64,000 bases of DNA from an uncultured virus (IMG/VR IMGVR_UViG_3300042934_000632) (lineage: Duplodnaviria > Heunggongvirae > Uroviricota > Caudoviricetes), in the IMG/VR virus record IMGVR_UViG_3300042934_000632; one strand, given 5' to 3'. Each line of letters opens with the position of its first letter. The stretch's first letter is position 1. Shown here in pieces: positions 14,656-64,000 of the stretch. The notes under the pieces were generated by a model. It did no database searches. It worked only from the letters and a program-made list of their open reading frames with translations, and had not been told where the DNA came from. Both the position numbers and the translations under genes were made by a program.

Positions 14656-14795
14656 AGTAAAGTCACAATAGGATTTATACGCTTCGATATAGTCAAGACC
14701 CGTAGTCTATTACTGGGTTGAAGCCACGTAACCTTCCATCGGAAACGTGGCTGTCTATAAATCTGCCGAAGATCCTATTGTGACTTTACTTTATA
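14651..14795 (+). ncRNA. hairpin cassette with UAUAC/CGAA internal loop
   Basis: 25 bp closing stem TATAAAGTAAAGTCACAATAGGATT / GATCCTATTGTGACTTTACTTTATA. Confidence 0.65.
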
Positions 14796-14812
14796 ATAAG
14801 GTGGGAACATTT

Positions 14813-16972
14813 ATGAGAACGTTAGTCCTTACTCGTGGTATAATGGCTTCTTCAAAATCAACATGGATTGCTGAAAATGGTCTTGCACCTTTTACTTTAT
14901 CTAGTGATAACTTGCGTCTACTCCATTCTGCTCCACAGCTTCAAGAAGATGGCAAGCAGGTAATAGCGGGATCGCAAGAAGGTAAGATCTGGAAACTTTT
15001 ATTTGAAGTTTTGGAGCGACGTATGCAAAACGGCGATTTTACCGTCATTGATGCAACACATATTACTTCGAGTTCCATTTCTGAGTATCGTGAACTGGCT
15101 AATAAATATCGTTATCGCGTGTTTGTAGTGGATTTTACTAATGTTCCTTTGGAAATAGCTTTAGAGCGGAATAAAAATCGTGAAGAATATAAGTATGTTC
15201 CAGAACATAAGATTGAAATAGCTTATGCTAAGCTTTCAGAAAATCATGTGCCTTCTTATGCGAAAGTTATTAAACCAGAAGAATTCTGGGATCATGTTTC
15301 ATATACAAAAATTGATTACAGCTCTTATCGCAAAATTCATCATATCGGGGATGTTCATGGATGCTACAGTGCATTAATGACTTACCTTTCAGGCGAAATG
15401 AAGGAAGACGAGTTGTATATTTTTGTTGGTGATTATCTAGACCGCGGCATTCAGAACCGCGAAGTTTTAGAATTCCTCATTCAGATTAAAGACCTTCCAA
15501 ATGTTATTCTTCTTGAAGGTAATCATGAAACTCATCTTCGCAAATGGTCAATGGATGAAACCGTTAAAAGTTTAGCATTCAACCACTATACCGAAAAAGA
15601 GATTCATGATGTTAATAAGTCCGCTGTTCGTGAACTGTGCAGAAAGTTCAGACAGGTTTGTTATTATGAATATTACGGCAAAACAGTGCTCGTCACTCAT
15701 GGAGGCTTATCCTGCATTCCAAACGAACTTGCTTTGATCTCGACTTCTCAATTTATTAAAGGAGTAGGAAATTATGAAGTTGATATTGATGCTATTTTCT
15801 CGGCTTCTGAACAAGATGGAACGTACCAGGTCCATGGTCATCGCAACATCTTCAGACTGCCTATGCAAGCCGCTGAGCGTTCTTTTAACCTGGAGGGTAG
15901 AGTTGAATCAGGAGGAGACTTAAGGGCTCTTACACTAACTCCTGAGGGGTTTCAAGAGCATTGTATCCAGAATCATGTTTTTACAACAGAACATTCTCCA
16001 ATGCCTCCCGTTGTAGGTTCCAAAACAACTACAGACAATTTCATTGAATACCTTCAGTCACACAAAATGGTTAAAGAAACACAGATAACTGATCATATTT
16101 CATCTTTTAACTTTACACGTAAAGCATTCAATGATGGCGTTTGGGATACGCTTAACATCAAGGCTCGCGGCCTTTTTGTGAATAAGCATACTCGAAAGAT
16201 CGTTAGCCGATCTTATGATAAGTTTTTTAATATTGACGAAGTTCCAGCTACAAAGATGGGAACATTAGCCAATACCCTGGAATTTCCTGTGATTTTGTCA
16301 GAAAAACCGAATGGATACCTAGGTATTATCGGGTATGATGAGGAGACAGATGAACTGATCTACTCTTCCAAGTCTGAAACTCGTGGTACTTATGCGGTAT
16401 CATTCAGAAAACTTTTCGAAGAAAAAGTTCCTGTTGAAATACGTGCTTGGCTTAAAGGATATCTTTACGGAAATGACGTGTCGATAACTTTTGAGGTTAT
16501 TCTTCCACAAGAAGATCCACACATCATAGAATATAAAGAGAATACTTTGATCTTACTCGATATTATCCAGCGAAATGTTCAGTTCCAAAAGAGATCTTAT
16601 TCCGAGGTTGTTGAGCTCGCAATGAATCTTCTTCTTCCATATCGTAAAATCAAATATGTCTTCCATAACTGGTTAAGTTTCTATCACTGGTATCAAAACG
16701 CATCTCAAGATTATTCTGTTAAAGAAGAAGGGTATGTCCTTGAAGATAATTCAGGTTTTATGACAAAGATAAAATTACCGTACTATCTTTTCTGGAAGCA
16801 AATGCGTACAGCAAAATTCCAGGTGAAGATGGAGGGCTATATGCTTCCTCAGTGGTTGCCGCCAATTCCTGACGATCTTAAAAATTTCGTTGGGTGGGCT
16901 AAACAGCAAGATCAGGAGTATTTGAAACGCGTGGATGTTATCCAGTTGCGTACAGATTACGAGGGCTCTTAA
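14813..16972 (+). CDS. Pnkp-like RNA repair enzyme: kinase + metallophosphoesterase + RNA ligase
   Basis: RGIMASSKST P-loop variant and IDAT; GDVHG/GDYLDRG/GNHE/HGG/HGH; EKPNG and EGYV...KIK ligase motifs. Confidence 0.85.
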   Translation: MRTLVLTRGIMASSKSTWIAENGLAPFTLSSDNLRLLHSAPQLQEDGKQVIAGSQEGKIWKLLFEVLERRMQNGDFTVIDATHITSSSISEYRELANKYRYRVFVVDFTNVPLEIALERNKNREEYKYVPEHKIEIAYAKLSENHVPSYAKVIKPEEFWDHVSYTKIDYSSYRKIHHIGDVHGCYSALMTYLSGEMKEDELYIFVGDYLDRGIQNREVLEFLIQIKDLPNVILLEGNHETHLRKWSMDETVKSLAFNHYTEKEIHDVNKSAVRELCRKFRQVCYYEYYGKTVLVTHGGLSCIPNELALISTSQFIKGVGNYEVDIDAIFSASEQDGTYQVHGHRNIFRLPMQAAERSFNLEGRVESGGDLRALTLTPEGFQEHCIQNHVFTTEHSPMPPVVGSKTTTDNFIEYLQSHKMVKETQITDHISSFNFTRKAFNDGVWDTLNIKARGLFVNKHTRKIVSRSYDKFFNIDEVPATKMGTLANTLEFPVILSEKPNGYLGIIGYDEETDELIYSSKSETRGTYAVSFRKLFEEKVPVEIRAWLKGYLYGNDVSITFEVILPQEDPHIIEYKENTLILLDIIQRNVQFQKRSYSEVVELAMNLLLPYRKIKYVFHNWLSFYHWYQNASQDYSVKEEGYVLEDNSGFMTKIKLPYYLFWKQMRTAKFQVKMEGYMLPQWLPPIPDDLKNFVGWAKQQDQEYLKRVDVIQLRTDYEGS

Positions 16973-18917: not shown

Positions 18918-21531
18918 ATGAGCTTATCTAGGGAAAAGGAAGTGATAGTTTACGTGACCTCGACGCAAGATTTATCTTTAGCCGCTGCGAAAGAAGAGCG
19001 GGGAGTCAGTTCACAACGCTTTACGCATCTTCATCTGCACACACCAGGTAGTTTGCTAGATGGATTTTGTCGTATAGCTGATCTAGTAAAACTCGCTAAA
19101 GAATTTGGTATGGACGCCGTGGGTATTAGTGACCATGGAAATTGCCATTCTCATGTCGAGTTTTTTCAAGCTTGTAAAGAAGCAGGAATTAAACCAATTA
19201 TGGGTATGGAAGGTTATATTACGCCTCACCGTAGTTGGAAAAAACCTGAGTTTACAGCCAAGCATTACAAAAAGCTTTCCTATCGTTATCGCACTAAAGC
19301 AGAGATGCAAGAAGACGGCGCGGAACAAATCGTTATGGATGGCAAGAATCTCGTTCCTAATGAGATCATTGATGCCTATCTCCGTAGTGAATTGGCAAGC
19401 CTAAACCGTTTGATTAAAGATGAGAGAGAAAACGGTAATGATCCAGAGCTGTTGAAGGATTTGTACGCGGCCAAGGATGATACTCGTATCTCAATCAATG
19501 CTTTGATCAGCTCAGGAGATCTTATTTATTCAGCGGTTCCTTCTCTAGCGACAGCAAATCTTTTTGAAATGCGGCCGAAGACGGCACATCTTTTAATGAT
19601 TGCACGAACGAACGAAGGATATCAGAATCTGCTTAAAATCACCAGTATTGCTCAGCTTGAGGGTGTTTATTACAAACCACGTGCTGATTATAAGTTAATT
19701 AAACAGTATGGGAAAGGCATCATTGCTACTAGTGCGTGTCTTGGCGGAGAAATCCCTCAGCTTATTCGTAAAGGGAAAGAAAGACTCGCTAAGAACATTG
19801 CACGGTTTTACCAAAGCTGCTTCGATGAGTTTTACTTTGAGCTACAACCAAGCCATTTGGAAGAGCAACACTATGTAAATGAAGTCCTGATCCGCTGGAG
19901 CGAAGAAATGGATATTCCGCTCGTTGCGACTTCAGATGCTCATATGCTGCGTCCAGAAGACCTGCCTATTCACTCCGCATTAACCAAGATTGGTAAAGCC
20001 CAAGATGATGCGGATATCAACGTTTATGAAAGCTGTTACTTCAAAAGCGCAGATGAAATGCTAGAAGGCGGAATGCCTGTAATTGCACTAGAGAATGCGT
20101 ATCTCATTTCTCAGAAGTGTAATGTTGAGCTTCCCCTCGGTAGAATTCACCTGCCTAGATTCACAGTTCCACCCGAGTATACATCAGACACCTACCTTTT
20201 AGAGCTTACAGACAATGCTTTGTTCCAGATGGCGCTCGAAAAGGATATTGATATCACCGTATATAAAGATCGTTTGAAGGAAGAACTTCTCGTTATCTTC
20301 GAGAAAGGATTTTCTGATTACTTTCTTATCGTTTGGGACTATATTGCTTTTGCGCGGCGTCAAGGCATTCTAGTAGGACCAGGCCGCGGTAGTGCAGGAG
20401 GTTCTCTTGTTGCCTATCTGCTGAAAATCACCAATATTGACCCTATCAAGTATGATCTTCTCTTCGAACGGTTCCTTGACCCTTCGCGTATGGACTTGCC
20501 CGATATTGACAGTGACTTTGATTATGTACGAAGACACGAGGTTGTTGAATATATCGCTGGAAAATATGGTCAAGATCATGTAGCTCAAGTTATTACATTC
20601 GGGTCTCTATCTTCAAAAGCGGCATTCAAAGACGTGGGCCGTATTTTAGGTATTGACCATAATATTATTAACACAATGAATAAACTAATTCCTGTTGTCT
20701 TTGGAAAGCCTTATGGCATTGACAAGGCCTTAGAAGAAGTCGAAGAATTAAGGGAGTATGAAAGACGCTATCCTGAAATGTTCGATCTTGCTCGAAAAGT
20801 TCATTCCCTGCCTCGGTCTACAGGTATTCATGCTTGTGCTCTTGTTATTACACCAGAGCCTATTGAGGAAATGGTACCCTTGATCAAGGGAAAAGCAGGA
20901 GAAATCGTTACCCAGTACGACGGCCCTACATTAGCGGAACAGTACGGTATCCTCAAGGTTGACTTGTTGGGACTGAAAAACCTATCTGTCATTGATATCG
21001 CCCGTAAGCTTGTCCTAGAGCGATATGACCGCGATATCGATCCTGATACATTAGAGTTTGATGATCCGCGCGTATTCAAGACTATTCAACAGGGGCACAC
21101 GGCGGGGCTCTTCCAAATTGAGAGCAGCGGGATGACCAAAATGTTTCAAAGTCTAAACCGCGTTACATTCGATGACCTTGTAGCAGGAATAGCTTTATAC
21201 CGTCCAGGCCCAATGCAGCATATTCCCGACTACTGTGCTCGTGCAAATGGATACACAGAGGTAACTTATCCATGTGAAGAACTGCGTCCTGTGCTAGAAA
21301 AAACGCATGGTATTGCCGTCTATCAAGAATCTATCATGGCAATGTCCAGAGTTATGGCGGGATACACAAAAGCTGAGACTACTAAGCTGCGTAAAGCGAT
21401 TTCCAAGAAAAAAGAAGAGGTTATGCGTCCAGCCTTGGATGAGCTTTTCAAACGAGTCACGATGAATGGCCACTCGGAAGAATTGGCAAAGAAAATCATC
21501 GACATCATCGAGCCTTTCGTAGGCTATGCGT
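18918..21531 (+). CDS. dnaE: DNA polymerase III alpha subunit, exon 1 (start may be GTG 18954)
   Basis: PHP HLHLHT..SLLDG, GPGRGSAGGS, PDIDSDF; ends at ...GYA-T. Confidence 0.92.
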
Positions 21532-22001
21532 TAATAGATGAACGGAAGTGTTCATGAGCGCCCTTGGCGAGCAATCGCCATTGAATAACTAGGTGAATTT
21601 AGGGGAGTCCTGGAGCAACAGTCGTGAGACAGATGTATGGTGACCCTAAGCGAAGTTTTGTGTAGATGGTGGCGGAATAGGTAGACGATAGGTCGGCTTA
21701 GTAGGTTTGGGTTGTGGTTCGAATCCACGATGCGCAATACGCGTAGACGCCGTGACGGTAAAAACCTGGCTATGTGAGGTGCAAATCCTCACCCACTATA
21801 CAAAAAACGTTCAACGACTATTCTTGAAATGGCCATGAGAATTGGCAACAGAAGTAGGGCCTATGCTTATAAAGATAGGCGGGTGAGAGTCCCTTAATCC
21901 GAAGCGCCTAGCATCCTCAGAACTTTGGGGATGGTGATATAGTCTACTCCCTCTCTGCTCGACAGAGAATTCAAAATATGGGGAAACCCAGGGTGAGATG
22001 G
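21532..22001 (+). mobile_element. group I intron without ORF (470 nt) in dnaE
   Basis: interrupts GYAF/NKSH; exon ends in U, intron ends in G; core elements GTTCAACGACTA and GATATAGTCTA. Confidence 0.85.
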
Positions 22002-22933
22002 TTAACAAATCCCACAGTGTAGCATATGCTATCGTCTGCTACATGACCGCTTACTTTAAAACATATTACCCTTTGGAGTTTATGGCGGCGTTGTTAACAG
22101 TATTTGGTAGTAATGTTAAGAAAGCAGTCCCTTATATCGCTGAATGCAAACGTATGGGATTCGAAGTATTGCCACCCGATGTAAACAAATCGGGATACGG
22201 TTTCGTAATCGAAGGCACAAATCTTCGTTTTGGCTTGAACAGCTTAAAAGGTCTTGGTGAAGTTGCGCTTGAACGCATTATAGAAGAGCGTCCTTTTGTA
22301 GATCTGGAAGATGCGATCAAACGAGTTCCGAAGAAGTTCTTGAACAAACGCGTCGTCGATGTGCTTAGCCTTTGCGGAGCCTTTGATGATCTTGCGAATG
22401 AAAAGAATCGGATGAAAATCGTTGAGAAAGCATATAAACTTCGTGGAGAGAAGAAATTTGATCTCACAAGTTTTATTGAAAACTTCGATCAAAAGGCTAA
22501 GCTTGATCATGAGAAAGCTATTCTAGGCGTCTACGTCAGTGGTCACCCACTAGATGGCTACGCTACCGCTGTCGGGCCTTGGCTTGAAAAGTCTGAAGGG
22601 GATCGATTCGATACCGCGGGAATTATTGCCGAATTCAACGTGATTAAAACCAAGAAAGGTGATGAAATGGCCTTTGTAGATTTGGATACTATCGAAGGTC
22701 TGCAAACTATTGTCATCTTCCCTCAGCAGTATTCGTCCATTCGTGGCCAGCTTGTTGAGGAACTGATCATGAAGATTACGGTTCAAGTCGAATACAATGC
22801 TGTGCGCGGCGAACGTAATTACATCGCCAAGAAGATCACGATTCCGAAGAAGATCAATAAGGGACTTTATATCCCGAAAGCTGCTTTGGAAGAAGAAGAC
22901 ACTACCAGTGAATATGAACAATGGGCACAATAG
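22002..22933 (+). CDS. dnaE: DNA polymerase III alpha subunit, exon 2
   Basis: NKSHSVAY, YPLEFMAALL, PDVNKS, RFGL, GHPL. Confidence 0.92.
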
Positions 22934-23211: not shown

Positions 23212-24730
<1,519 letters not shown>

Positions 24731-25726
24731 TAACAATAGCACCTTCGGCCAGTAATGGCCGTCGATCACTCCGTTAAACGGGAGAAGCCCTACATTTGAA
24801 TTGGTGTAGCTGGTCATCCACCGTGCTAAATGCTTATGTTCTTTGAAATATTACAGTTGAAATACTTCAATCAAAAGGTTACGTTCACTCTAGAATGCTA
24901 GAGAGGAATGAACCCTATGGAATCTTATGGTTTTGTTTATGAGACTACTAACAAAATCAATGGAATGAAGTATATCGGTAAATGTGTATATGGTAGAAAG
25001 AATGACTGGGAGAAATACCTAGGCTCTGGGTTGTATCTTAAGCGTGCTATTAAAAAGTATGGAAGAGAGAATTTTATTCGAACGACTCTAGAAGAGGCTT
25101 CTTCCGAAGAAGAATTGCAGTTGCTCGAAGAGAATTACATCAAACGCTTTAATGCGGTTGAGTCTCCTCAATATTACAACATTAAGATGACTTCTATGGG
25201 TGGAGATACATACACAACCAACCCAAACAGAGAGCATATTAGGAAGCTTAAACAGGCCAATATGAGCGGAGAACGAAATCACCAGTATGGAAAACCCAAA
25301 ACAGAATGTATGATTAATTCTGTTAAGGAATCTAACAGGAGAGCTGTCGAAGTTGACGGCGTGTTCTACGAAAGCCAAGTTGAAGCTTGCAAGGCCACTG
25401 GGCTAAAACCCACACTCCTTGCTTATCGTCTTAGCAGTAATCTTTACCCTACCTACATACGTTTACAGCCGAATCAACGTAATAACTCAAAAAACATAAG
25501 CTAAAAGCCTAACGATCATCGAAAGCATAGCCTGTTGAAAGAATACAGGTGAATAAGCGAGTAGAGTACCCCTCAAGCGAGGCCCTGATGCAAAACAGGG
25601 ATAATTCATAAAGGGAAAAGCGGAGCAGCCTACCAGGTCGTGCTGGGGCTGATGATATGATCTCCTCTATAGCGTAGAGCTATAGCCCCATGGAGAGCGC
25701 CTAGCGAGCGCACTTAAAGATATAGG
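24731..25726 (+). mobile_element. group I intron in nrdE carrying a homing endonuclease
   Basis: interrupts SNLC/SEILQ; exon ends U, intron ends G; CCTAACGATCA / GATATGATCT core-like elements. Confidence 0.85.
24908..25504 (+). CDS. GIY-YIG homing endonuclease
   Basis: GFVYETTNKINGMKYIG, YLGSG, YYN. Confidence 0.9.
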   Translation: MNPMESYGFVYETTNKINGMKYIGKCVYGRKNDWEKYLGSGLYLKRAIKKYGRENFIRTTLEEASSEEELQLLEENYIKRFNAVESPQYYNIKMTSMGGDTYTTNPNREHIRKLKQANMSGERNHQYGKPKTECMINSVKESNRRAVEVDGVFYESQVEACKATGLKPTLLAYRLSSNLYPTYIRLQPNQRNNSKNIS

Positions 25727-26683
25727 AGCGAAATTCTTCAAGCTTCTAAAGTCAGTGAATATACCGACTATGGTCTAGAAGACAATATTGGCTTGGATAT
25801 CTCTTGTAACCTGGGTTCAATTAACCTCATCCCTGTTATGCGGAATAAGAGCCTGCGTCAGACTGTTCGTACAGGTATGGACGCTCTTACTGCGGTTGCT
25901 CATACAACGAATATTAAGAATGCTCCTGGCGTAGCTAAGGCTAATGACCTGATGCAATCTGTAGGTTTAGGCTTTATGAACCTTCATGGATGCCTTGTGG
26001 AGCATAAGTTTTCGTATGAAAGTGAAGCTGCTCGTGAATTCGCCAGCGTTATTGCTATGGCGACAAACTTCTATTCTCTGGAACGTTCTATGGAGATCGC
26101 AAAAGAAACGGGTATCAAATACTACGGCTTTGAGAAGTCTACCTATGCATCTGGAGAATACTTCCAGAAATATCTCGAAAATTCCTATCTGCCAAAGACT
26201 GAGAGAGTTGCAAAAGCATTCGAAGGTATGGATCTTCCAGGTCCAGAAGAATGGGCAGCGCTTATGGCTCTTGTGATGGAGCATGGGCTCTACCACGCCT
26301 ACCGACTAGCTGTTGCACCTACAGGCTCAATCTCTTACGTACAGTCCGCTACGGCGTCTATCATGCCCATTATGGAGCGTATTGAGAATCGGACCTATGG
26401 TAATTCCAAAACCTTCTATCCGATGCCTGGACTGAGCCAAGCGAACTGGTATTTTTATAAAGAAGCTTATGATATGGATATGTTCCGCGTTGTTGATATG
26501 GTTGCCGCGGTTCAGGAACATGTTGACCAAGGTATCAGCTTCACGTTATTCTTGAAGAGCGATACAACGACTAGGGATCTCACGAAGATTGATCTGTATG
26601 CCCATCACAAAGGTATCAAGACGATTTACTACGCTCGGACTCGTGATGTCACTAGAGACGATTGCTTGTCTTGTACTGTATAA
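25727..26683 (+). CDS. nrdE: class Ib ribonucleotide reductase alpha, exon 2
   Basis: SEILQ, SCNLGS, APTGSISY, KTIYY, CLSCTV. Confidence 0.93.
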   Translation, partial: SEILQASKVSEYTDYGLEDNIGLDISCNLGSINLIPVMRNKSLRQTVRTGMDALTAVAHTTNIKNAPGVAKANDLMQSVGLGFMNLHGCLVEHKFSYESEAAREFASVIAMATNFYSLERSMEIAKETGIKYYGFEKSTYASGEYFQKYLENSYLPKTERVAKAFEGMDLPGPEEWAALMALVMEHGLYHAYRLAVAPTGSISYVQSATASIMPIMERIENRTYGNSKTFYPMPGLSQANWYFYKEAYDMDMFRVVDMVAAVQEHVDQGISFTLFLKSDTTTRDLTKIDLYAHHKGIKTIYYARTRDVTRDDCLSCTV

Positions 26684-58885: not shown

Positions 58886-59178
58886 AGATATGAAACGAAC
58901 TAAAACAAAAATTAAACTGGAGAAGCTGGATGATCTGGCTTCTTCTATTATTTTTTATACTCAAGGTGATCGAAAATATTTCACAGAAAAACACCTTGAA
59001 GGGTATAGATTTAAAGCAGGCGCAAACTTTCAAACTCTTATTGATTTGGGTTTTAGAGCTCGTAAGCATGGTGGGTTTAAGTTTGAGCGTGAAGTTTCTT
59101 ATGTTCGAGCAGAGTTAGAGCAATATATTGAACCGTTAAGAGTTAGGGATCGATGGTTCTTCCCCTGGAATTCATGAC

Positions 59179-59439
59179 ATGGATGCTCCAAAATTCAACG
59201 TAAGGGATGAGGTTGTTGTCACTTTTCCTGACGGATCTAGGATCAGAGGGAAAATATATCCTATTCCTGGGGCTTTTTTAAATGAGAAAGGCTACCTCGT
59301 GCTATATGAACATACAAGATTTTATATTGAAAATGGGAAACGTTATTTCACAAGCGGAGCAAGACACCCTGAGTATATGATCACTTTATTCATAGAGAAC
59401 AATGACTACTACCACCTTCAACTCGACGACCTGGAATAG
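59179..59439 (+). CDS. small SH3-like protein with C-terminal tag
   Basis: PKFNVRDEVVV; ends NDYYHLQLDDLE. Confidence 0.65.
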   Translation: MDAPKFNVRDEVVVTFPDGSRIRGKIYPIPGAFLNEKGYLVLYEHTRFYIENGKRYFTSGARHPEYMITLFIENNDYYHLQLDDLE

Positions 59440-59445
59440 CAAACA

Positions 59446-59474
59446 TTGCCAAATTCCATGATATGTTATATAAT
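59446..59474 (+). promoter_or_regulatory. sigmaA-type promoter
   Basis: TTGCCA-17 bp-TATAAT. Confidence 0.7.
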
Positions 59475-59548
59475 TCATCTAGTATATGGGTGTGTTTTAA
59501 ATAGATTGCAATCCTTGAGACGACCAATGAAATAAGGAGGACGCATGA

Positions 59549-60325
59549 ATGGGTTCTAAGCATTCAGGGCGAGCCTATCGTTTCCTTGTACCTATTGTGA
59601 TTATTGTAGTTCTATTAATTGCATGGGGCACTAGAGAACATAGTCTAAGCCAGAAGCACCAGTCTACGATCTCTTCCCTTAAATCAGAACTAAGTAGCAA
59701 GGGTCAGGTTATTGAGAATAAGAATATCCTCATTCAGCAGAAACAAGCTGAACTTGATCTCCAGTCTTCGCTGCTGGAACAACAGCAAAAGAAGCTAGAC
59801 AAAAGACAGGCTATTATCGAGCTGAATATTAAGGAGGCGCAAGTCTCCGATAATAAGATCGAAGCTCAAAAGAAGACTATCAATCAATTGCAAAAGAAGT
59901 TGTCTTCGGAACAGTCCAATACCAGTTTGAAAGCCAAGCCAACCACTGTAAATGCTACTACAGTCTCGGCAAAAGCATCAGGAAGCTTTCAATCTGGATG
60001 GACTGCAACTTACTATTCGCTAAGCGTGGCTTCCACTGGGAAGAGACCAGGTCACCCTGGCTACGGAATCACGGCTAGCGGACGTAAGGTAGTAGACGGT
60101 GTTACGATTGCCGTTGATCCACGATACATTCCTTTGGGAACTTGGATCGAAATTAAAATGCCTAACGGCGAAGTCATCAAACGAAGAGCCGACGATACAG
60201 GCTCCGCCATTAAAGGACATAAGCTAGATATTTATGTGGCTGGCGTCAGTGACTCATACATCTATCAAGAACTTGGTAAGAAACAAATCTCTATCCGTAT
60301 TCTCGGAAAGGGAGAACTGAACTAA
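59549..60325 (+). CDS. membrane-anchored coiled-coil protein with 3D (lytic transglycosylase-like) domain
   Basis: TM helix; ATYY...ITASG...IAVDP..IPLGT...ADDTGSAIKG..LDIY. Confidence 0.88.
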   Translation: MGSKHSGRAYRFLVPIVIIVVLLIAWGTREHSLSQKHQSTISSLKSELSSKGQVIENKNILIQQKQAELDLQSSLLEQQQKKLDKRQAIIELNIKEAQVSDNKIEAQKKTINQLQKKLSSEQSNTSLKAKPTTVNATTVSAKASGSFQSGWTATYYSLSVASTGKRPGHPGYGITASGRKVVDGVTIAVDPRYIPLGTWIEIKMPNGEVIKRRADDTGSAIKGHKLDIYVAGVSDSYIYQELGKKQISIRILGKGELN

Positions 60326-60389
60326 AAATCTGTAAAAATATACTAGACGCTCTGGGATTGCGTTACTTTGTACTGCTGCGATATAATGT

Positions 60390-60482
60390 TGGTATAGCGA
60401 GAACACACCCTCTCGCTGTGCCGATCTGTGGTTGCAACCAGCAGAACAGCATCAAGGGTTTCTCACTAGAGAGCCCTTTTTG
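60390..60482 (+). ncRNA. candidate small RNA with its own promoter and terminator
   Basis: TTGCGT-18 bp-TATAAT upstream; hairpins; AAGGGTTTCTC/GAGAGCCCTT followed by a T-run. Confidence 0.45.
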
Positions 60483-60558
60483 TTTGTAAATTTTTGAAGA
60501 CGTATATAGAAATATAAGGTATAATACTGTTACTACCATAACACGGAGGTTATGAACC

Positions 60559-60741
60559 ATGGCAAAAAGCAGTGCAAGAAAGAAGAGAGAACATAGGGTG
60601 CGACAAGGAAAATTAAATCCTGAGAATTCCAGAGGCAGTTGGAATGGTGTTATGCCTGTGACTAAGGTGAAACCAAACAAGAAAAAAGATCACCGCTTTG
60701 GTGATTATGATCGAGCTTACAACATTGTTGTAGGTTGGTAA
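60559..60741 (+). CDS. small basic protein
   Basis: MAKSSARKKR...RQGKLNPE..RGSW; RBS GGAGG. Confidence 0.6.
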   Translation: MAKSSARKKREHRVRQGKLNPENSRGSWNGVMPVTKVKPNKKKDHRFGDYDRAYNIVVGW

Positions 60742-60766
60742 ATAATCATGAGAGAGGAGACCAACA

Positions 60767-61084
60767 ATGTGGTGTAGAATCATGGAGAACACGGAGAATC
60801 CTTCTAATATCTTTGAATTTGAAAGCAACAATGATTTAATTGTTCATTATACCGTATCGAAAGAAACAAGCACTCCAGTTGTTGAGATTACAAAGTTAGC
60901 TACTATTGAAAATAGACTGGAAACATGTGCTATTAGTCTTATCAAAAATGAAATTCAGATCCACCTATATACAGGAGAACAGTTATTCAGAGTTTGCGTA
61001 GGTGGAATCAGAAGATTCATGTTGTTTGAGCATAATGATACAGTTCATGAACGACTAATTATTGATGTAACGAAAGACTTGTAG
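60767..61084 (+). CDS. hypothetical protein
   Basis: RBS GAGGAG. Confidence 0.55.
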   Translation: MWCRIMENTENPSNIFEFESNNDLIVHYTVSKETSTPVVEITKLATIENRLETCAISLIKNEIQIHLYTGEQLFRVCVGGIRRFMLFEHNDTVHERLIIDVTKDL

Positions 61085-61095
61085 GAGGAGTAGAA

Positions 61096-61626
61096 ATGGC
61101 CGTACCAGGCAGCCTGTGGGTTCAAGGGACCCAGCTTCGTTTTACGAGTCAAAGCGGAGTCAACTTTGCATATGAAGGTACTTATAGTAGCTCGCCTGCT
61201 GGAGCTAAACCAGGCAGCTCATGGATCGAAGGCGATAACTTCGCTTATATCGACCAGTATGGTTCTAAAAGACTCGTTATTAATTATACTGCTACTAATA
61301 TTCCCGCCGCAGTTGCAGGCAGCTTATGGATTTATGGCAATTATCTTTATTGGATTAACACTAATAAGAATAAAACCTACGGACATGGAGATGCAACTCA
61401 TCAGAATACAAGCTATAATGATGGTAGTTATAACGATTATAATAATTCATCAACATCCCATGGTGATTCTACGGTAACTTTCCAAGATTCGCCGACACAT
61501 GGTAATCATGTACCCTACCATGCGGACTGGCCTGCTTCACATACGGATAGCTATAACTATCAAGATACACACAACAATAGCTACCATACGGATACTCCAC
61601 ATGCTGATTATCCTATTCAAGTGTAG
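61096..61626 (+). CDS. putative radical-SAM substrate: three GSxW beta-repeats plus 14 aromatic-X-D/N motifs
   Basis: PGSLWVQG/PGSSWIEG/AGSLWIYG; HGD, HQN, YND, YND, YNN, HGD, FQD, HGN, HAD, HTD, YQD, HNN, HTD, HAD. Confidence 0.7.
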   Translation: MAVPGSLWVQGTQLRFTSQSGVNFAYEGTYSSSPAGAKPGSSWIEGDNFAYIDQYGSKRLVINYTATNIPAAVAGSLWIYGNYLYWINTNKNKTYGHGDATHQNTSYNDGSYNDYNNSSTSHGDSTVTFQDSPTHGNHVPYHADWPASHTDSYNYQDTHNNSYHTDTPHADYPIQV

Positions 61627-61641
61627 GGAGGAGAGAACACA

Positions 61642-62862
61642 TTGACAACAGAAGTGAGACCTATGGGTGTTTCGTGTCCTTTAAAATGTGTTTATTGCTA
61701 TCAAGAACCCCAGAGGGTTGCGGGAAATACTAATGCAAAATATGATTTGGCGAAGATGATTCAGGAGATCTCAAAGACTCGAACAAAGAATATTAATTTC
61801 TTTGGTGGCGAGATCTTAATGATGCCTATAGAAGATCTAGAGGTACTGCTGGCTTACGCTCATGTTAAGTTCGGTGGATCAGGTGTTCAAACCAGCGGAT
61901 CTATCATGAGAGATGAACATATTGAACTCTTCAAAAAGTACAATGTTCAGCTGGGCTTCTCCATTGACGGTCCTAACGAGCTAAACAGTCTCCGAGTTCC
62001 ACGCAATCCAAAGACTCCTATTGAAAGTACAACGGATAATACAATGAAATATATCAAGCTATCAAAAGAAGCTGGGCTTGATGTAGGCCTTATTATTACC
62101 CTTCATAGAGAAAACTCTACTCCAGAACGTATTCCACGGTTGTTTAATTTTATCAAGTGGTTATGGGATCTTGGTATTCGTAGCGGGAATATTCATACTC
62201 TAGAAATTGAATCTACAATGCCGAACCACGACTTTGTATTGACACAAGAAGAGAACATCTGGGCTTACACCCAACTTGCCGAGTTCTTTAAAACGCTTCC
62301 TGACCATGGATGGAATCCTTTCGCAGAGATTAAAGACTTACTGATGGGTAACGATCAAAAAACTCTTTGTTATTGGCACCGATGCGATCCATTGAATACT
62401 CAAGCTGTCCACGGAATCGAAGGTGACGGTGCAATCTCTAACTGTGGACGAGCAAATAAAGAAGGAATTGACTGGGTCAAAGCTCCTGATAATTATTATG
62501 CAAGATACATCAGCTTCTATCATACGCCTCAAGATATGGGTGGCTGTAATGGATGCCGCTTCTGGACAGTATGCGGAGGAAGTTGCCCAGGTGAATCCGA
62601 TCAGGGGGATTTCAGAAATAAAACAACACATTGCTCTACTCAGAAAGCAATACTTTCCTATTATGAAAAAGAACTTATTGATGAAGGCAAGCTACCCATT
62701 ACGACATCGCCTTTGCTTCCTCTTGTTGAACAGCTCGTTCTTAATGGTCTTGAAAGAGGAGAGAACTTATATCTTAATACTGTTATTTCAATGATTGAAG
62801 AGATGAGAACAGAAGTCATCCAACTGGAAGTCGTAGAGGAGGATATCAATGAAACTACTTGA
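61642..62862 (+). CDS. radical SAM/SPASM peptide-maturase-like enzyme
   Basis: CPLKCVYC, FFGGE, SIDGP; SPASM-like C..C.....C...C (CNGCRFWTVCGGSC). Confidence 0.9.
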   Translation: MTTEVRPMGVSCPLKCVYCYQEPQRVAGNTNAKYDLAKMIQEISKTRTKNINFFGGEILMMPIEDLEVLLAYAHVKFGGSGVQTSGSIMRDEHIELFKKYNVQLGFSIDGPNELNSLRVPRNPKTPIESTTDNTMKYIKLSKEAGLDVGLIITLHRENSTPERIPRLFNFIKWLWDLGIRSGNIHTLEIESTMPNHDFVLTQEENIWAYTQLAEFFKTLPDHGWNPFAEIKDLLMGNDQKTLCYWHRCDPLNTQAVHGIEGDGAISNCGRANKEGIDWVKAPDNYYARYISFYHTPQDMGGCNGCRFWTVCGGSCPGESDQGDFRNKTTHCSTQKAILSYYEKELIDEGKLPITTSPLLPLVEQLVLNGLERGENLYLNTVISMIEEMRTEVIQLEVVEEDINETT

Positions 62863-63793
62863 TTTTAGTATGCCACCATTTGCAAGAACGGTTTGGGCCT
62901 CTCAAGAAATAGAGAAGGAGTGGCGTCCCAAACTGGCTTTAGCCTCTCAAGCTTATGAGCGTTTAGAGTATGAAACGGTTGTTCATGGCCTTAGAGCCTG
63001 TACAACAGCACATTGTACTCCTGATGATATGGTTCGTCGGATTCAATTTTATGCAAAGAAAGGTCTTATGTATCATCCCTTACAGCAAGTAGGTGCTTAT
63101 ACAGGGTTCGCTCATACACACCCTCCAGTTATTCCAGGAAAACCTTGGACCTGGTTCGGTGTTGTAGCTAAAGACCCTCTTGATGCTTACACCTTTGCTG
63201 AGGCATCTGCATTGACAGAAGATTCCGCGGGTAAGGAAATAGATCACTCAACGATTGGCACTCTTCTTGGATACCCTGAATGCTGCCGAAAGTTCTTCAC
63301 AGATGTATGGGCCGCGGGATATGTTGATCCTGTATGGCAACAAGCAGAAAACTGTGAAGGTGAATACGTAGTGAAGAAAGAAGAGCATCTTATTCAGCTA
63401 AGCAAGGAGACTCCATGGGAGACTTCACCACTACTGAGATACATTGGAGTACGTATCATGCCTCACATTCCATGCTCTCATGATTGTAAACCTTCTCTGG
63501 TTATCGCAAGAAGTTGGTTGGATCTTGGTAGAGAGTTGGCCATACCAGGCATGGAAGAGCTTGAGCAATTTCTTCGGATGCCAGTAGAATGGGATTGCTT
63601 GAAGGGGATAGCCTATGTGTCTACTCCAATCTTCAAGATTGAAACGAATTCCATGACATGTTATCCACGGCATGTTGTTCAAAAGGAAGGAACATTTAGA
63701 CCAAAGAGTGGAGCAAAAGGACTGAAGTTTCCTTTTATTCCGCTAGGATCTGATAAGTTTGCTCACCTCTTTGGAGGAGGAAGCGGGTGCTAA
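62849..63793 (+). CDS. Cys-containing accessory protein with LGYPECC motif, coupled to the rSAM gene
   Basis: overlapping start; GYPECC and HIPCSHDC motifs. Confidence 0.7.
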   Translation: MKLLDFSMPPFARTVWASQEIEKEWRPKLALASQAYERLEYETVVHGLRACTTAHCTPDDMVRRIQFYAKKGLMYHPLQQVGAYTGFAHTHPPVIPGKPWTWFGVVAKDPLDAYTFAEASALTEDSAGKEIDHSTIGTLLGYPECCRKFFTDVWAAGYVDPVWQQAENCEGEYVVKKEEHLIQLSKETPWETSPLLRYIGVRIMPHIPCSHDCKPSLVIARSWLDLGRELAIPGMEELEQFLRMPVEWDCLKGIAYVSTPIFKIETNSMTCYPRHVVQKEGTFRPKSGAKGLKFPFIPLGSDKFAHLFGGGSGC

Positions 63794-64000
63794 TTCATGT
63801 TTAAACAACGTTTATGGGATTGCCTTTTGGCAGTCCTTTCTTTTATTGTAGCAATAGTATTAATCATTGGTATAGCTTTTCTAGCTGTTTTCTTGTCAGA
63901 CATCTATTGGTTTAAGATACTTGTAAGTACTGTTGTTATTCTTATCTTGTCCTTCGTTGTTATTATCGCTCTTTCACTGTTTGTTAACTGGCTGTTTATT

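Follow-up and report, generated by a model that had tools for sequence, protein, structure and literature searches.

Positions 61096–63793 of a 64,000 nt stretch of DNA from an uncultured virus of the Caudoviricetes (IMG/VR record IMGVR_UViG_3300042934_000632; the whole stretch is referred to here as the window) carry three tightly packed genes, all on the + strand. They code for a 176 aa protein that ends in a run of aromatic-x-Asp/Asn triplets, a radical S-adenosylmethionine (SAM) enzyme of the SPASM type, and a partner protein resembling the family DUF483. The trio is a member of a published phage module and of a known kind of maturation, in which a radical SAM (rSAM) enzyme acts on aromatic-x-X motifs. 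To judge from gene neighborhoods in relatives, the triplet tail is very probably the substrate of the enzyme, and there is an even chance that the three genes form a protein-maturation cassette acting by the cross-linking mechanism proposed below. The anatomy of the cassette, the homology and co-occurrence of its three parts, and the predicted order and disorder of the triplet protein are established by the analyses that follow.

The triplet protein, the enzyme and the partner

A first-pass annotation of the sequence had described three adjoining genes, and the open reading frame (ORF) list bears out that description. The first gene (61096..61626, +, ATG start) codes for the 176 aa protein, in which three N-terminal repeats of about 35 residues, each with a GSxW[IV]xG motif (GSLWVQG, residues 5–11; GSSWIEG, 40–46; GSLWIYG, 75–81), are followed from nt 61384 by 14 [H/Y/F]-x-[D/N] triplets; both features had been claimed before and were found again when the sequence was re-read. 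The N-terminal domain, predicted to be all-beta, spans residues 1–98 (61096..61389), and the tail takes up residues 97–176 (61384..61626), its triplets being followed by the C-terminal end D-Y-P-I-Q-V. From residue 97 onwards the triplets read HGD, HQN, YND, YND, YNN, HGD, FQD, HGN, HAD, HTD, YQD, HNN, HTD and HAD; position 1 is His in nine, Tyr in four and Phe in one, while position 3 is Asp in ten and Asn in four. Nine of the ten His residues of the tail fall within a triplet. When the last 81 residues, which include 10 His and 10 Asp, were shuffled with their composition preserved, the mean was 4.62 triplets (standard deviation 1.65) and the maximum in 20,000 shuffles was 11, compared with the 14 observed. 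The window has 317 stop-to-stop frames of 60 aa or longer, and this ORF stands apart from all the rest: none of the others exceeds 7 triplets per 80 aa, compared with its 14, and none of them has three GSxW repeats. The His-x-Asp (HxD) tail is real and far beyond chance.

The 176 aa protein matched no Pfam, NCBIfam or PHROG family. Its N-terminal domain is 34% identical to protein Cumys_13 of the Thermus phage Cumys (E 8e-19), and residues S6, W8, G40, G75, S76 and W78 are invariant across 26 homologues; P173 is nearly invariant in the family alignment, where the C-terminal end is conserved. In the AlphaFold2 model, 11 strands lie within residues 1–96, and the predicted local distance difference test score (pLDDT) is 93–98 over residues 1–90, about 50 over residues 101–170 and 82 for the last six residues. 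Overall, the model predicts order for the N-terminal domain (pLDDT about 95) and, in the monomer, disorder for the tail. A Foldseek search with the model gave no solved chain at E ≤ 0.001, with beta-hairpin cell-wall-binding repeats appearing only at E > 0.1. The best VIA match was a weak one to the beta-prism II lectin LlpA (Z 4.0, root mean square deviation (rmsd) 4.4, 91 residues), and two more matches were of the monocot-lectin type (beta-prism II, Z 2.1–2.5); these hint at most that the domain is a three-fold beta-prism. The sole match in BFVD, A0A451ED92 (342 aa, 30% identity, E 8e-10), is probably a homologue of the type found in phages Cumys and phiMa, judging by its length and identity alone.

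Searched by itself, the N-terminal domain matches 277 representative proteins at E ≤ 1e-3. Among the best 150 of these matches, 71 have an HxD tail, 46 have some other tail (Cys-rich in some cases) and 33 have a short tail or none, and in several matches the domain forms the C-terminal part of a 400–735 aa protein. Since it occurs on proteins with other tails or no tail, the domain is a mobile module rather than a leader specific to this enzyme. Cys-rich tails in place of HxD tails were seen on the homologues P0209, P0214, P0222, P0239, P0253 and P0294; these could be substrates of other maturases, or plain disulfide-rich tips.

The second gene (61642..62862, +) has a TTG start and codes for a 406 aa enzyme that the first-pass annotation had taken for a radical SAM/SPASM protein. 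This assignment is confirmed by a match to PF04055 (Radical_SAM) at 59.2 bits, above the cut-off of 29.5, and by a complete seven-Cys SPASM motif. The motif is defined as Cx9-15Gx4C, then Cx2Cx5Cx3C, then C, and in the enzyme it reads C248-x14-G263-x4-C268, C302-x2-C305-x5-C311-x3-C315 and C331. These positions and the cluster motif C12-x3-C16-x2-C19 are invariant in an alignment of 31 homologues, as are M1 and E4, in agreement with the TTG start. No Pfam SPASM model was listed for the enzyme at E ≤ 0.1; the NCBIfam alignments of PapB, CefB and DarW extend across its SPASM region. The first cluster Cys is residue 12 in 101 of 134 family ORFs, which leaves no room for an N-terminal leader-recognition domain. 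Among solved sequences the enzyme comes closest to an anaerobic sulfatase maturase (anSME) and to a Radical SAM domain protein (E about 3e-4 to 8e-4), and it is 40–43% identical, over 95% of its length, to the rSAM proteins of the Thermus phages phiLo, Cumys and phiMa. The NCBIfam models matched by every one of the 31 family members are all those of SPASM-type protein, peptide or cofactor maturases or of viperin. By sequence, the enzyme is classed as a SPASM-type protein or peptide maturase outside the curated families.

The third gene (62849..63793, +, ATG start) overlaps the enzyme gene by 14 nt and codes for a 314 aa protein, in which the GYPECC motif noted earlier was located at residues 141–146, and which also has C209-x3-C213. 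It was assigned by homology to Cumys_11, a 'DUF483-domain protein' (46% identity, E 2e-86). Its score with the Pfam DUF483 model (PF04467) is 19.8 bits, compared with a cut-off of 25; homologues 35–52% identical to it reach the cut-off (26.5 bits in locus L004 and 25.7 bits in L069), and the part that matches the model is the GYPxCC region. Several cluster relatives carry a precomputed PF04467 label, and in the ESM Atlas the partner falls among mostly viral clusters, with the DUF483 label on 16–34% of members and some methyltransferase fusions. Longer relatives (440–650 aa) show a weak class I methyltransferase match, a domain that is missing from the window version, and an Atlas structure search found the latter to be about 130 residues longer than the roughly 186 aa archaeal DUF483 cluster. 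No NCBIfam family, hence no HxsD model, was matched by the partner, and neither a function nor a solved structure was found for the DUF483 family.

Ten residues (R13, R49, P143, C145, C146, D160, C213, P245, W248 and P260) are invariant in 44 partner sequences, and C209 is nearly invariant, being His in Cumys; this pattern of conservation suggests a Cys-rich metal site. The AlphaFold2 model of the partner has a pLDDT of 92.8 and a predicted template modeling (pTM) score of 0.88. Its Foldseek search returned no solved chain at E ≤ 0.001. With VIA, the top match was to 2guk_B (Z 6.1, rmsd 3.7, 104 residues), followed by one to NleE (Z 4.4, rmsd 3.5, 106 residues). Each is below the noise level of the tool at about Z 8, and no function was drawn from them. 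All three genes of the cassette have a strong Shine-Dalgarno sequence 6–9 nt 5' of the start, that of the triplet protein gene being AGGAGGA. A scan of 59400–64000 for promoters and terminators found promoter-like sites no more often than expected by chance, and terminator-like sites that fall within genes.

Homologous loci and co-occurrence

The rSAM family comprises 262 database clusters at E ≤ 1e-3. Relatives numbered 294 on genome contigs, with 80 loci kept, and 129 on viral contigs, with 77 loci kept. Of the 161 sources (160 loci and the window end), 134 had a family ORF at an hmmsearch E ≤ 1e-30, and the other 27, which held distant rSAM genes, were dropped. Window excluded, there were 133 related loci: 50 viral, 80 genomic and three from isolated phages (individual loci are given below by L numbers). 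An ORF was scored as HxD-rich if it had at least 8 triplets per 80 aa (strict criterion) or at least 6 His-x-Asp in a 150 aa window (looser criterion). Scans with the single rSAM protein confirmed nothing in viral contigs, where alignment-based scans succeeded, and in metagenomes they gave two distant loci only (36% and 28% identity) and no close relative. A megablast search of 59000–64000 against the phage collection also gave no match.

An HxD-rich protein is present in 100 of the 133 related loci by the strict criterion and in 13 more by the looser one. Under the strict criterion, it is encoded on the same strand within 1.5 kb upstream of the enzyme in 44 of the 50 viral loci, with three further loci having it elsewhere and three having none. 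On the genome contigs the corresponding figures are 34, 16 and 30 of 80 loci. In two of the three isolated phages the HxD-rich protein is upstream (elsewhere in none), and in the third, phiLo, the tail is fused to the enzyme; an IS605-type transposase is found upstream of the phiLo enzyme. When the 33 loci scored as having none were re-inspected, 13 proved to have sparser HxD tails, among them ORFs hidden by ORF calling (L022, L033) and 900–1400 aa proteins with sparser tails at their ends (L006, L009, L028, L034, L050, L081). The DUF483-like partner occurs in 127 of the 133 loci. Across all 134 loci, it is adjacent and downstream in 84, fused to the C-terminus of the enzyme in 26, elsewhere in 18, absent in four and lost at a contig end in two. 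That the trio forms one functional unit, as had been proposed, is supported by this conserved co-occurrence together with the homology of the three parts across relatives. Two loci show additions to the arrangement: a tandem pair of rSAM paralogues in L099 (3488-4993 and 4995-6935), and a homing endonuclease inserted between the rSAM and partner genes in L102 (6260-6952).

The carriers of the tail are otherwise unrelated. At one extreme are 63 aa triplet-only peptides, and others are proteins bearing twin-arginine (Tat) or lipoprotein signals, giant proteins, and phage proteins that have the N-terminal domain described above or a Laminin_G_3 lectin domain. The tail is the sole element common to all of them, and is therefore taken as the substrate of the enzyme. 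The first-pass annotation had named an aromatic-x-D/N tail on a folded-domain protein as the substrate, a view to which rSAM homologues lacking such a neighbor would be contrary; with a tail protein directly upstream in 44 of 50 viral loci, and present in 100 of the 133 loci by the strict criterion, that view was not refuted.

A short C-terminal tail of the HGDHTD type is borne by the enzyme itself in 15 of the 134 cases (L001, L033, L047, L084, L086, L088, L090, L099, L101, L103, L123, L124, L125, L127 and L133), and these tails could be self-substrates or pseudo-substrates. That of L127 repeats RPHGDHTDQALVEGIVD several times. Among cellular HxD proteins, those of L013 (4409-4990), L048 (4314-4919) and L072 (3381-3872) were judged by eye to have a twin-arginine and/or lipoprotein-type N-terminal signal (RR..L..G...AAACG), which suggests export of the modified protein. 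Giant cellular proteins (880–1615 aa) with HxD tails at their ends are encoded upstream of the enzyme in L006, L009, L016, L020, L045, L050 and L081; that of L045 also has beta/gamma-crystallin domains, and those of L006, L009, L016, L020 and L081 matched no Pfam family.

Triplet grammar and candidate chemistry

The grammar of the triplets was determined from tails picked by triplet density, namely 51 non-identical tails of viral origin (12,463 residues) and 41 from genome contigs. In the viral tails, the residue two positions after His is Asp in 85.5% of cases, Asn in 10.4%, Glu in 1.0% and Gln in 0.3%; the figure for Asp in the genomic tails is 91.3%. At position 1 the viral triplets have His (1879), Tyr (143), Phe (118) or Trp (43), and Asn is found at position 3 in 338 cases. 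The middle residue varies (Thr, Ser, Gly, Val, Gln, Ala), and the commonest spacing between successive triplets is five residues. Compared with these tails, that of the window has unusually many Tyr and Asn. Position 1 thus accepts one aromatic residue for another, even Phe, which does not chelate, while the side-chain length at position 3 is fixed, and this fits the omega1-X2-X3 rule of triceptides. With Glu nearly absent and Phe in use, a reaction that requires an aromatic ring, along with a side chain as long as that of Asp/Asn, fits better than plain metal binding.

The same statistics bear on whether the tail is modified at all. It is improbable that it serves as an unmodified metal-binding or fibre-forming element, such as a His/Asp ion ladder along a trimeric needle, with the rSAM and DUF483-like proteins acting on the N-terminal domain or as assembly factors in the usual fibre-chaperone slot. 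Neither Phe, used at position 1, nor Asn, used at position 3, makes a good ligand, and the near-exclusion of Glu is likewise contrary to this explanation, even if the tail is rich in His and Asp. The tip of the phage T4 long fibre does bind iron through repeated His motifs, and the enzyme pair lies directly 3' of fibre-type genes in relatives of the window cassette; nevertheless, it is the tail and not the N-terminal domain that all contexts share, down to the triplet-only peptides, some enzymes bear the tail themselves, and in the monomer it is predicted to be disordered.

Three known systems invite comparison. The closest is the 'rSAM module' of Thermus phages (Cumys_13/12/11 and phiMa; bioRxiv 10.1101/2024.08.14.607894, PMC11437467), whose three proteins are homologous to those of the window and encoded in the same order. 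Cumys_13 (343 aa) likewise has three N-terminal repeats followed by a triplet tail, and the rSAM proteins of Cumys and phiMa are 40–41% identical to the window enzyme over 95% of its length. Thermus thermophilus HB8 serves as a host for both of these phages. The Thermus substrate proteins differ in having about 250 residues of almost pure His-x-Asp, compared with the 14 triplets of the window protein with their four Tyr, one Phe and four Asn, and the Thermus modules follow baseplate/tail-collar-fibre genes, whereas the window module lies among genes of DNA metabolism. The paper on phage Cumys reports similar loci in prophages and leaves the function of the module open (PMC11437467).

The second system is that of the triceptide synthases, which are also radical SAM/SPASM enzymes encoded beside a substrate with an aromatic-X-X3 motif (PMC11499958). 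The same source describes HaaB (acting on HAA), YhhB (HNR) and HtkB (HTK) as joining C2 of His to C-beta of residue 3. The adjacency of a motif-bearing substrate is found here as well, in that 14 triplets are encoded next door and the adjacency is conserved across loci. However, in place of a short leader-core peptide the window-type substrate is a folded-domain protein or a large protein's tail, there are from 14 to several dozen motifs, the DUF483-like partner is obligate (and sometimes fused to the enzyme), and the genes are carried mainly by phages.

The third is the antiphage system HXS (HxsA/B/C/D), in which a His-x-Ser repeat protein is matured by rSAM enzymes and HxsC binds a small partner, HxsD (PMC13128918, Nat Commun 2026). 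It proves by experiment that an entire effector protein is modified by rSAM enzymes, and it resembles the window cassette in combining a folded domain and His-x-small-residue repeats with an rSAM enzyme that has a small partner. It differs in being a bacterial defence, in having five basic His-x-Ser repeats rather than acidic His-x-Asp repeats, in using two rSAM enzymes, and in N-terminal processing and export of the product. In the main text of the open-access literature, no paper was found linking the phage module to protein cross-linking. Open-access searches likewise found no triceptide on a phage protein and no virion cyclophane (papers on phage N4 merely cite an HExxH paper), and searches for His-Xaa-Asp and repeat variants gave unrelated enzyme-motif papers only. 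One paper, on the conversion of Asp to aminomalonate, was set aside as not relevant, the enzymes concerned being of the Fe/2-oxoglutarate and HD types and not of the rSAM/DUF483 family.

Under the mechanism proposed here, the 176 aa protein would be made as a folded all-beta N-terminal domain followed by a tail, flexible and acidic, that holds the 14 aromatic-x-Asp/Asn triplets. The radical SAM/SPASM enzyme, having no leader-binding domain, would pair with the DUF483-like partner, probably a subunit with a Cys-rich metal site, and would read the triplets themselves. SAM would be cleaved reductively and a hydrogen abstracted from the position-3 residue, most likely from C-beta of Asp or Asn, and that carbon would be bonded to the ring of the His, Tyr or Phe two residues upstream. 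The result would be up to 14 three-residue cyclophane staples, each with a loss of 2 Da, forming a rigid array that would resist proteases and retain its imidazole nitrogens and carboxylates, so that it could bind metal. In many relatives the modified protein would form part of a tail/baseplate gene block, and in this phage the same role may be supposed. By analogy with triceptides, we put the chance that the tail chemistry is a cross-link of this kind at somewhat under even. A fuller picture, in which a leader-independent rSAM/DUF483 holoenzyme staples up to 14 triplets (dozens in relatives) of a folded viral protein and the resulting rigid array, with its imidazole and carboxylate groups pre-organized, binds metal ions or cationic host-surface groups at the tip of a fibre, is offered tentatively.

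Several observations weigh against the cross-linking mechanism. The enzyme falls below every curated cyclophane-synthase cut-off: its best NCBIfam match, to the cyclophane-forming AmcB, has 72.5 bits for a cut-off of 425, and those to YhhB, XyeB and GrrM have 50 (445), 38.8 (450) and 38.7 (310) bits, respectively. The 31 family members likewise miss the cut-offs tested (XyeB, GrrM/OscB, FxsB, YhhB and AmcB), and all 31 match the models of anaerobic sulfatase maturase, PapB, DynA, AmcB and YhhB alike, with best E values of 1e-21 to 1e-26. Neither Foldseek nor VIA drew a functional lead from the fold of the partner. About 20 of the 133 loci lack an HxD-rich ORF, although six of these have under about 530 nt of sequence upstream of the enzyme. 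The grammar statistics are partly circular, given how the tails were picked, but a choice based on density does not force Glu to be nearly absent or Phe to be used. In this phage, the module sits between the primase gene and further DNA-metabolism genes on the same strand, a local context that lends no support to a virion role and would fit early or middle expression. The only paper to name the module guesses at an unknown DNA modification (PMC11437467). Finally, HXS, the nearest experimentally studied rSAM system on His-x-small repeats, gives +8 Da at one site and not −2 Da (PMC13128918), which is a warning that the window chemistry may not be a simple −2 Da staple.

The last point bears directly on an explanation that keeps substrate and enzyme as proposed and changes the chemistry, either to an HXS-like +8 Da product, to a His N-to-C-beta or ether link as in dynobactin and darobactin, or to an oxidation of Asp C-beta like that of anaerobic sulfatase maturases. 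We regard this as unlikely, although there are points in its favor: the enzyme family is equidistant from the anSME, PapB, DynA, AmcB and YhhB models, the +8 Da change of HXS, placed on SHRSS, arises in a system of a His-x-Ser repeat protein, rSAM enzymes and HxsD on HxsC (PMC13128918), and long forms of the partner have a class I methyltransferase domain, a hint that there is further tailoring in relatives. On the other side, His, Tyr, Phe and Trp replace one another freely at position 1, as predicted for an attack on an aromatic ring; this fits imidazole-nitrogen chemistry less well, while the three characterized His triplet enzymes all form the C2-to-C-beta bond in the source cited for them above (PMC11499958). 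Nor does the cassette resemble HXS in its profile matches, as the window enzyme scores 36.1 bits with HxsB, for which the cut-off is 370, the repeats are His/Tyr-x-Asp/Asn, and no NCBIfam family was matched by the partner, HxsD included, or by the substrate.

The guess at a DNA modification was weighed in the same way. If the enzyme pair modified DNA or a nucleotide, with the HxD protein as an accessory, the place of the module inside a block of DNA-metabolism genes would be accounted for, and rSAM and DUF483 homologues are described beside deazapurine DNA-modification genes in some cyanobacteria, together with DUF483-methyltransferase fusions (PMC11437467). This is quite improbable when set against the near-obligate neighbor, which is a repeat protein and not a DNA enzyme, the tail genes that adjoin the module in most viral loci, and the NCBIfam models matched by all 31 family members, among which there is no DNA-modifying enzyme.

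Genomic setting, possible virion role and significance

The window is part of a large phage, and by PHROG matches its DNA-metabolism genes are all on the + strand. They include a split DNA polymerase, ribonucleotide reductases, NrdDG, ThyA, DHFR, a UvsX-like recombinase, a helicase and a primase, and the helicase is about 52% identical to those of 217–234 kb Bacillus phages. A near-identical virus record (G001; 251,543 bp, rated complete) carries the module at 100% identity in a single copy. In the 40 kb downstream of the module in G001 are genes for a deoxynucleoside monophosphate kinase, resolvases, thymidine kinase, helicases, a DHH phosphoesterase, a Cas4-like nuclease, PhoH and an endolysin, and no recognized tail gene, protease or transporter. 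The statement of the first-pass annotation that no protease or transporter adjoins the cassette can thus be extended, as PHROG matches revealed none upstream in the window, nor any in the downstream 40 kb of G001; the nearest peptidase-like match is to a cell-wall hydrolase type of protein with a 3D domain, encoded at 59549-60325.

Triceptide-type systems include precursors with several cores in which omega-x-X motifs are repeated, and the tail might be the precursor of small released peptides, cut out after cyclization as in a classical peptide natural product that is made on the ribosome and modified after translation. The lack of a protease or exporter, both in the window and in the 40 kb downstream, makes this very improbable, as do flanking ORFs that are not conserved with the module, and the conserved folded N-terminal domain and C-terminal end, which argue for an intact protein as the product. 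The flanking ORFs, starting at 58890, 59179, 59549, 60767 and 63797, have no relatives in the 160 fetched loci save one weak 3D-domain match, and lie outside the module. Two of them have features of their own. The ORF at 59549-60325, two genes upstream of the module, codes for 258 aa with a hydrophobic segment at the N-terminus, a middle part that is rich in Gln and Lys and may be a coiled coil, and a 3D domain at the C-terminus (PF06725, E 9e-12); its product is probably a cell-wall hydrolase that is not conserved alongside the module. The ORF from 63797, which begins 4 nt 3' of the partner gene, is very hydrophobic and runs past the end of the window at 64000.

Elsewhere in the window, the DNA polymerase is encoded in two ORFs about 440 nt apart (18918-21557 and 21998-22933), and the large subunit of a class I ribonucleotide reductase is split around a homing-endonuclease ORF (23561-24733, 24908-25504 and 25793-26683), which suggests intron- or intein-type insertions. 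At 14747-16972 is a gene for a 741 aa fusion of polynucleotide kinase/phosphatase and RNA ligase (phrog_8238, E 4e-237), an enzyme of the RNA-repair type.

The first-pass annotation had further supposed that the cross-linked protein might make up a rigid virion fibre or a metal-binding appendage. Relatives lend weight to the fibre part of the proposal, since baseplate or tail genes flank their modules: those of Cumys and phiMa lie 3' of baseplate and tail-collar-fibre genes, those of L093, L110 and L129 are 3' of tail/host-specificity genes, those of L108 and L099 are 3' of a tail collar gene and a tail fibre gene, respectively, and that of L069 is between baseplate/tail fibre genes and holin/endolysin genes. 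The phage from which the window derives does not follow suit, its module being placed among DNA-metabolism genes. A virion fibre is a reasonable reading for the family, and whether the HxD protein is a virion component is evenly balanced.

To the published module, the window adds a minimal version that is free of the methyltransferase, rich in Tyr and Asn, and sited outside any tail module. It is among the smallest complete versions, with a substrate of 176 aa, an enzyme of 406 aa and a partner of 314 aa, and would be a convenient construct for biochemistry. The enzyme family is spread over phages of thermophiles, of Bacillota and of many uncultured hosts, and over cellular genomes. If the proposed chemistry is correct, radical SAM cross-linking, so far associated with small peptide natural products and one bacterial defence protein, would be widespread in phages as a means of finishing their own proteins, and a viral protein would for the first time be seen to be cross-linked enzymatically through C-C bonds. 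DUF483 would gain a function, as a new kind of substrate-presenting subunit, and a leader-independent, repeat-recognizing maturase would join the enzyme toolbox. For the phages themselves, such cross-links could account for the stability of fibre tips or for their adhesion chemistry.

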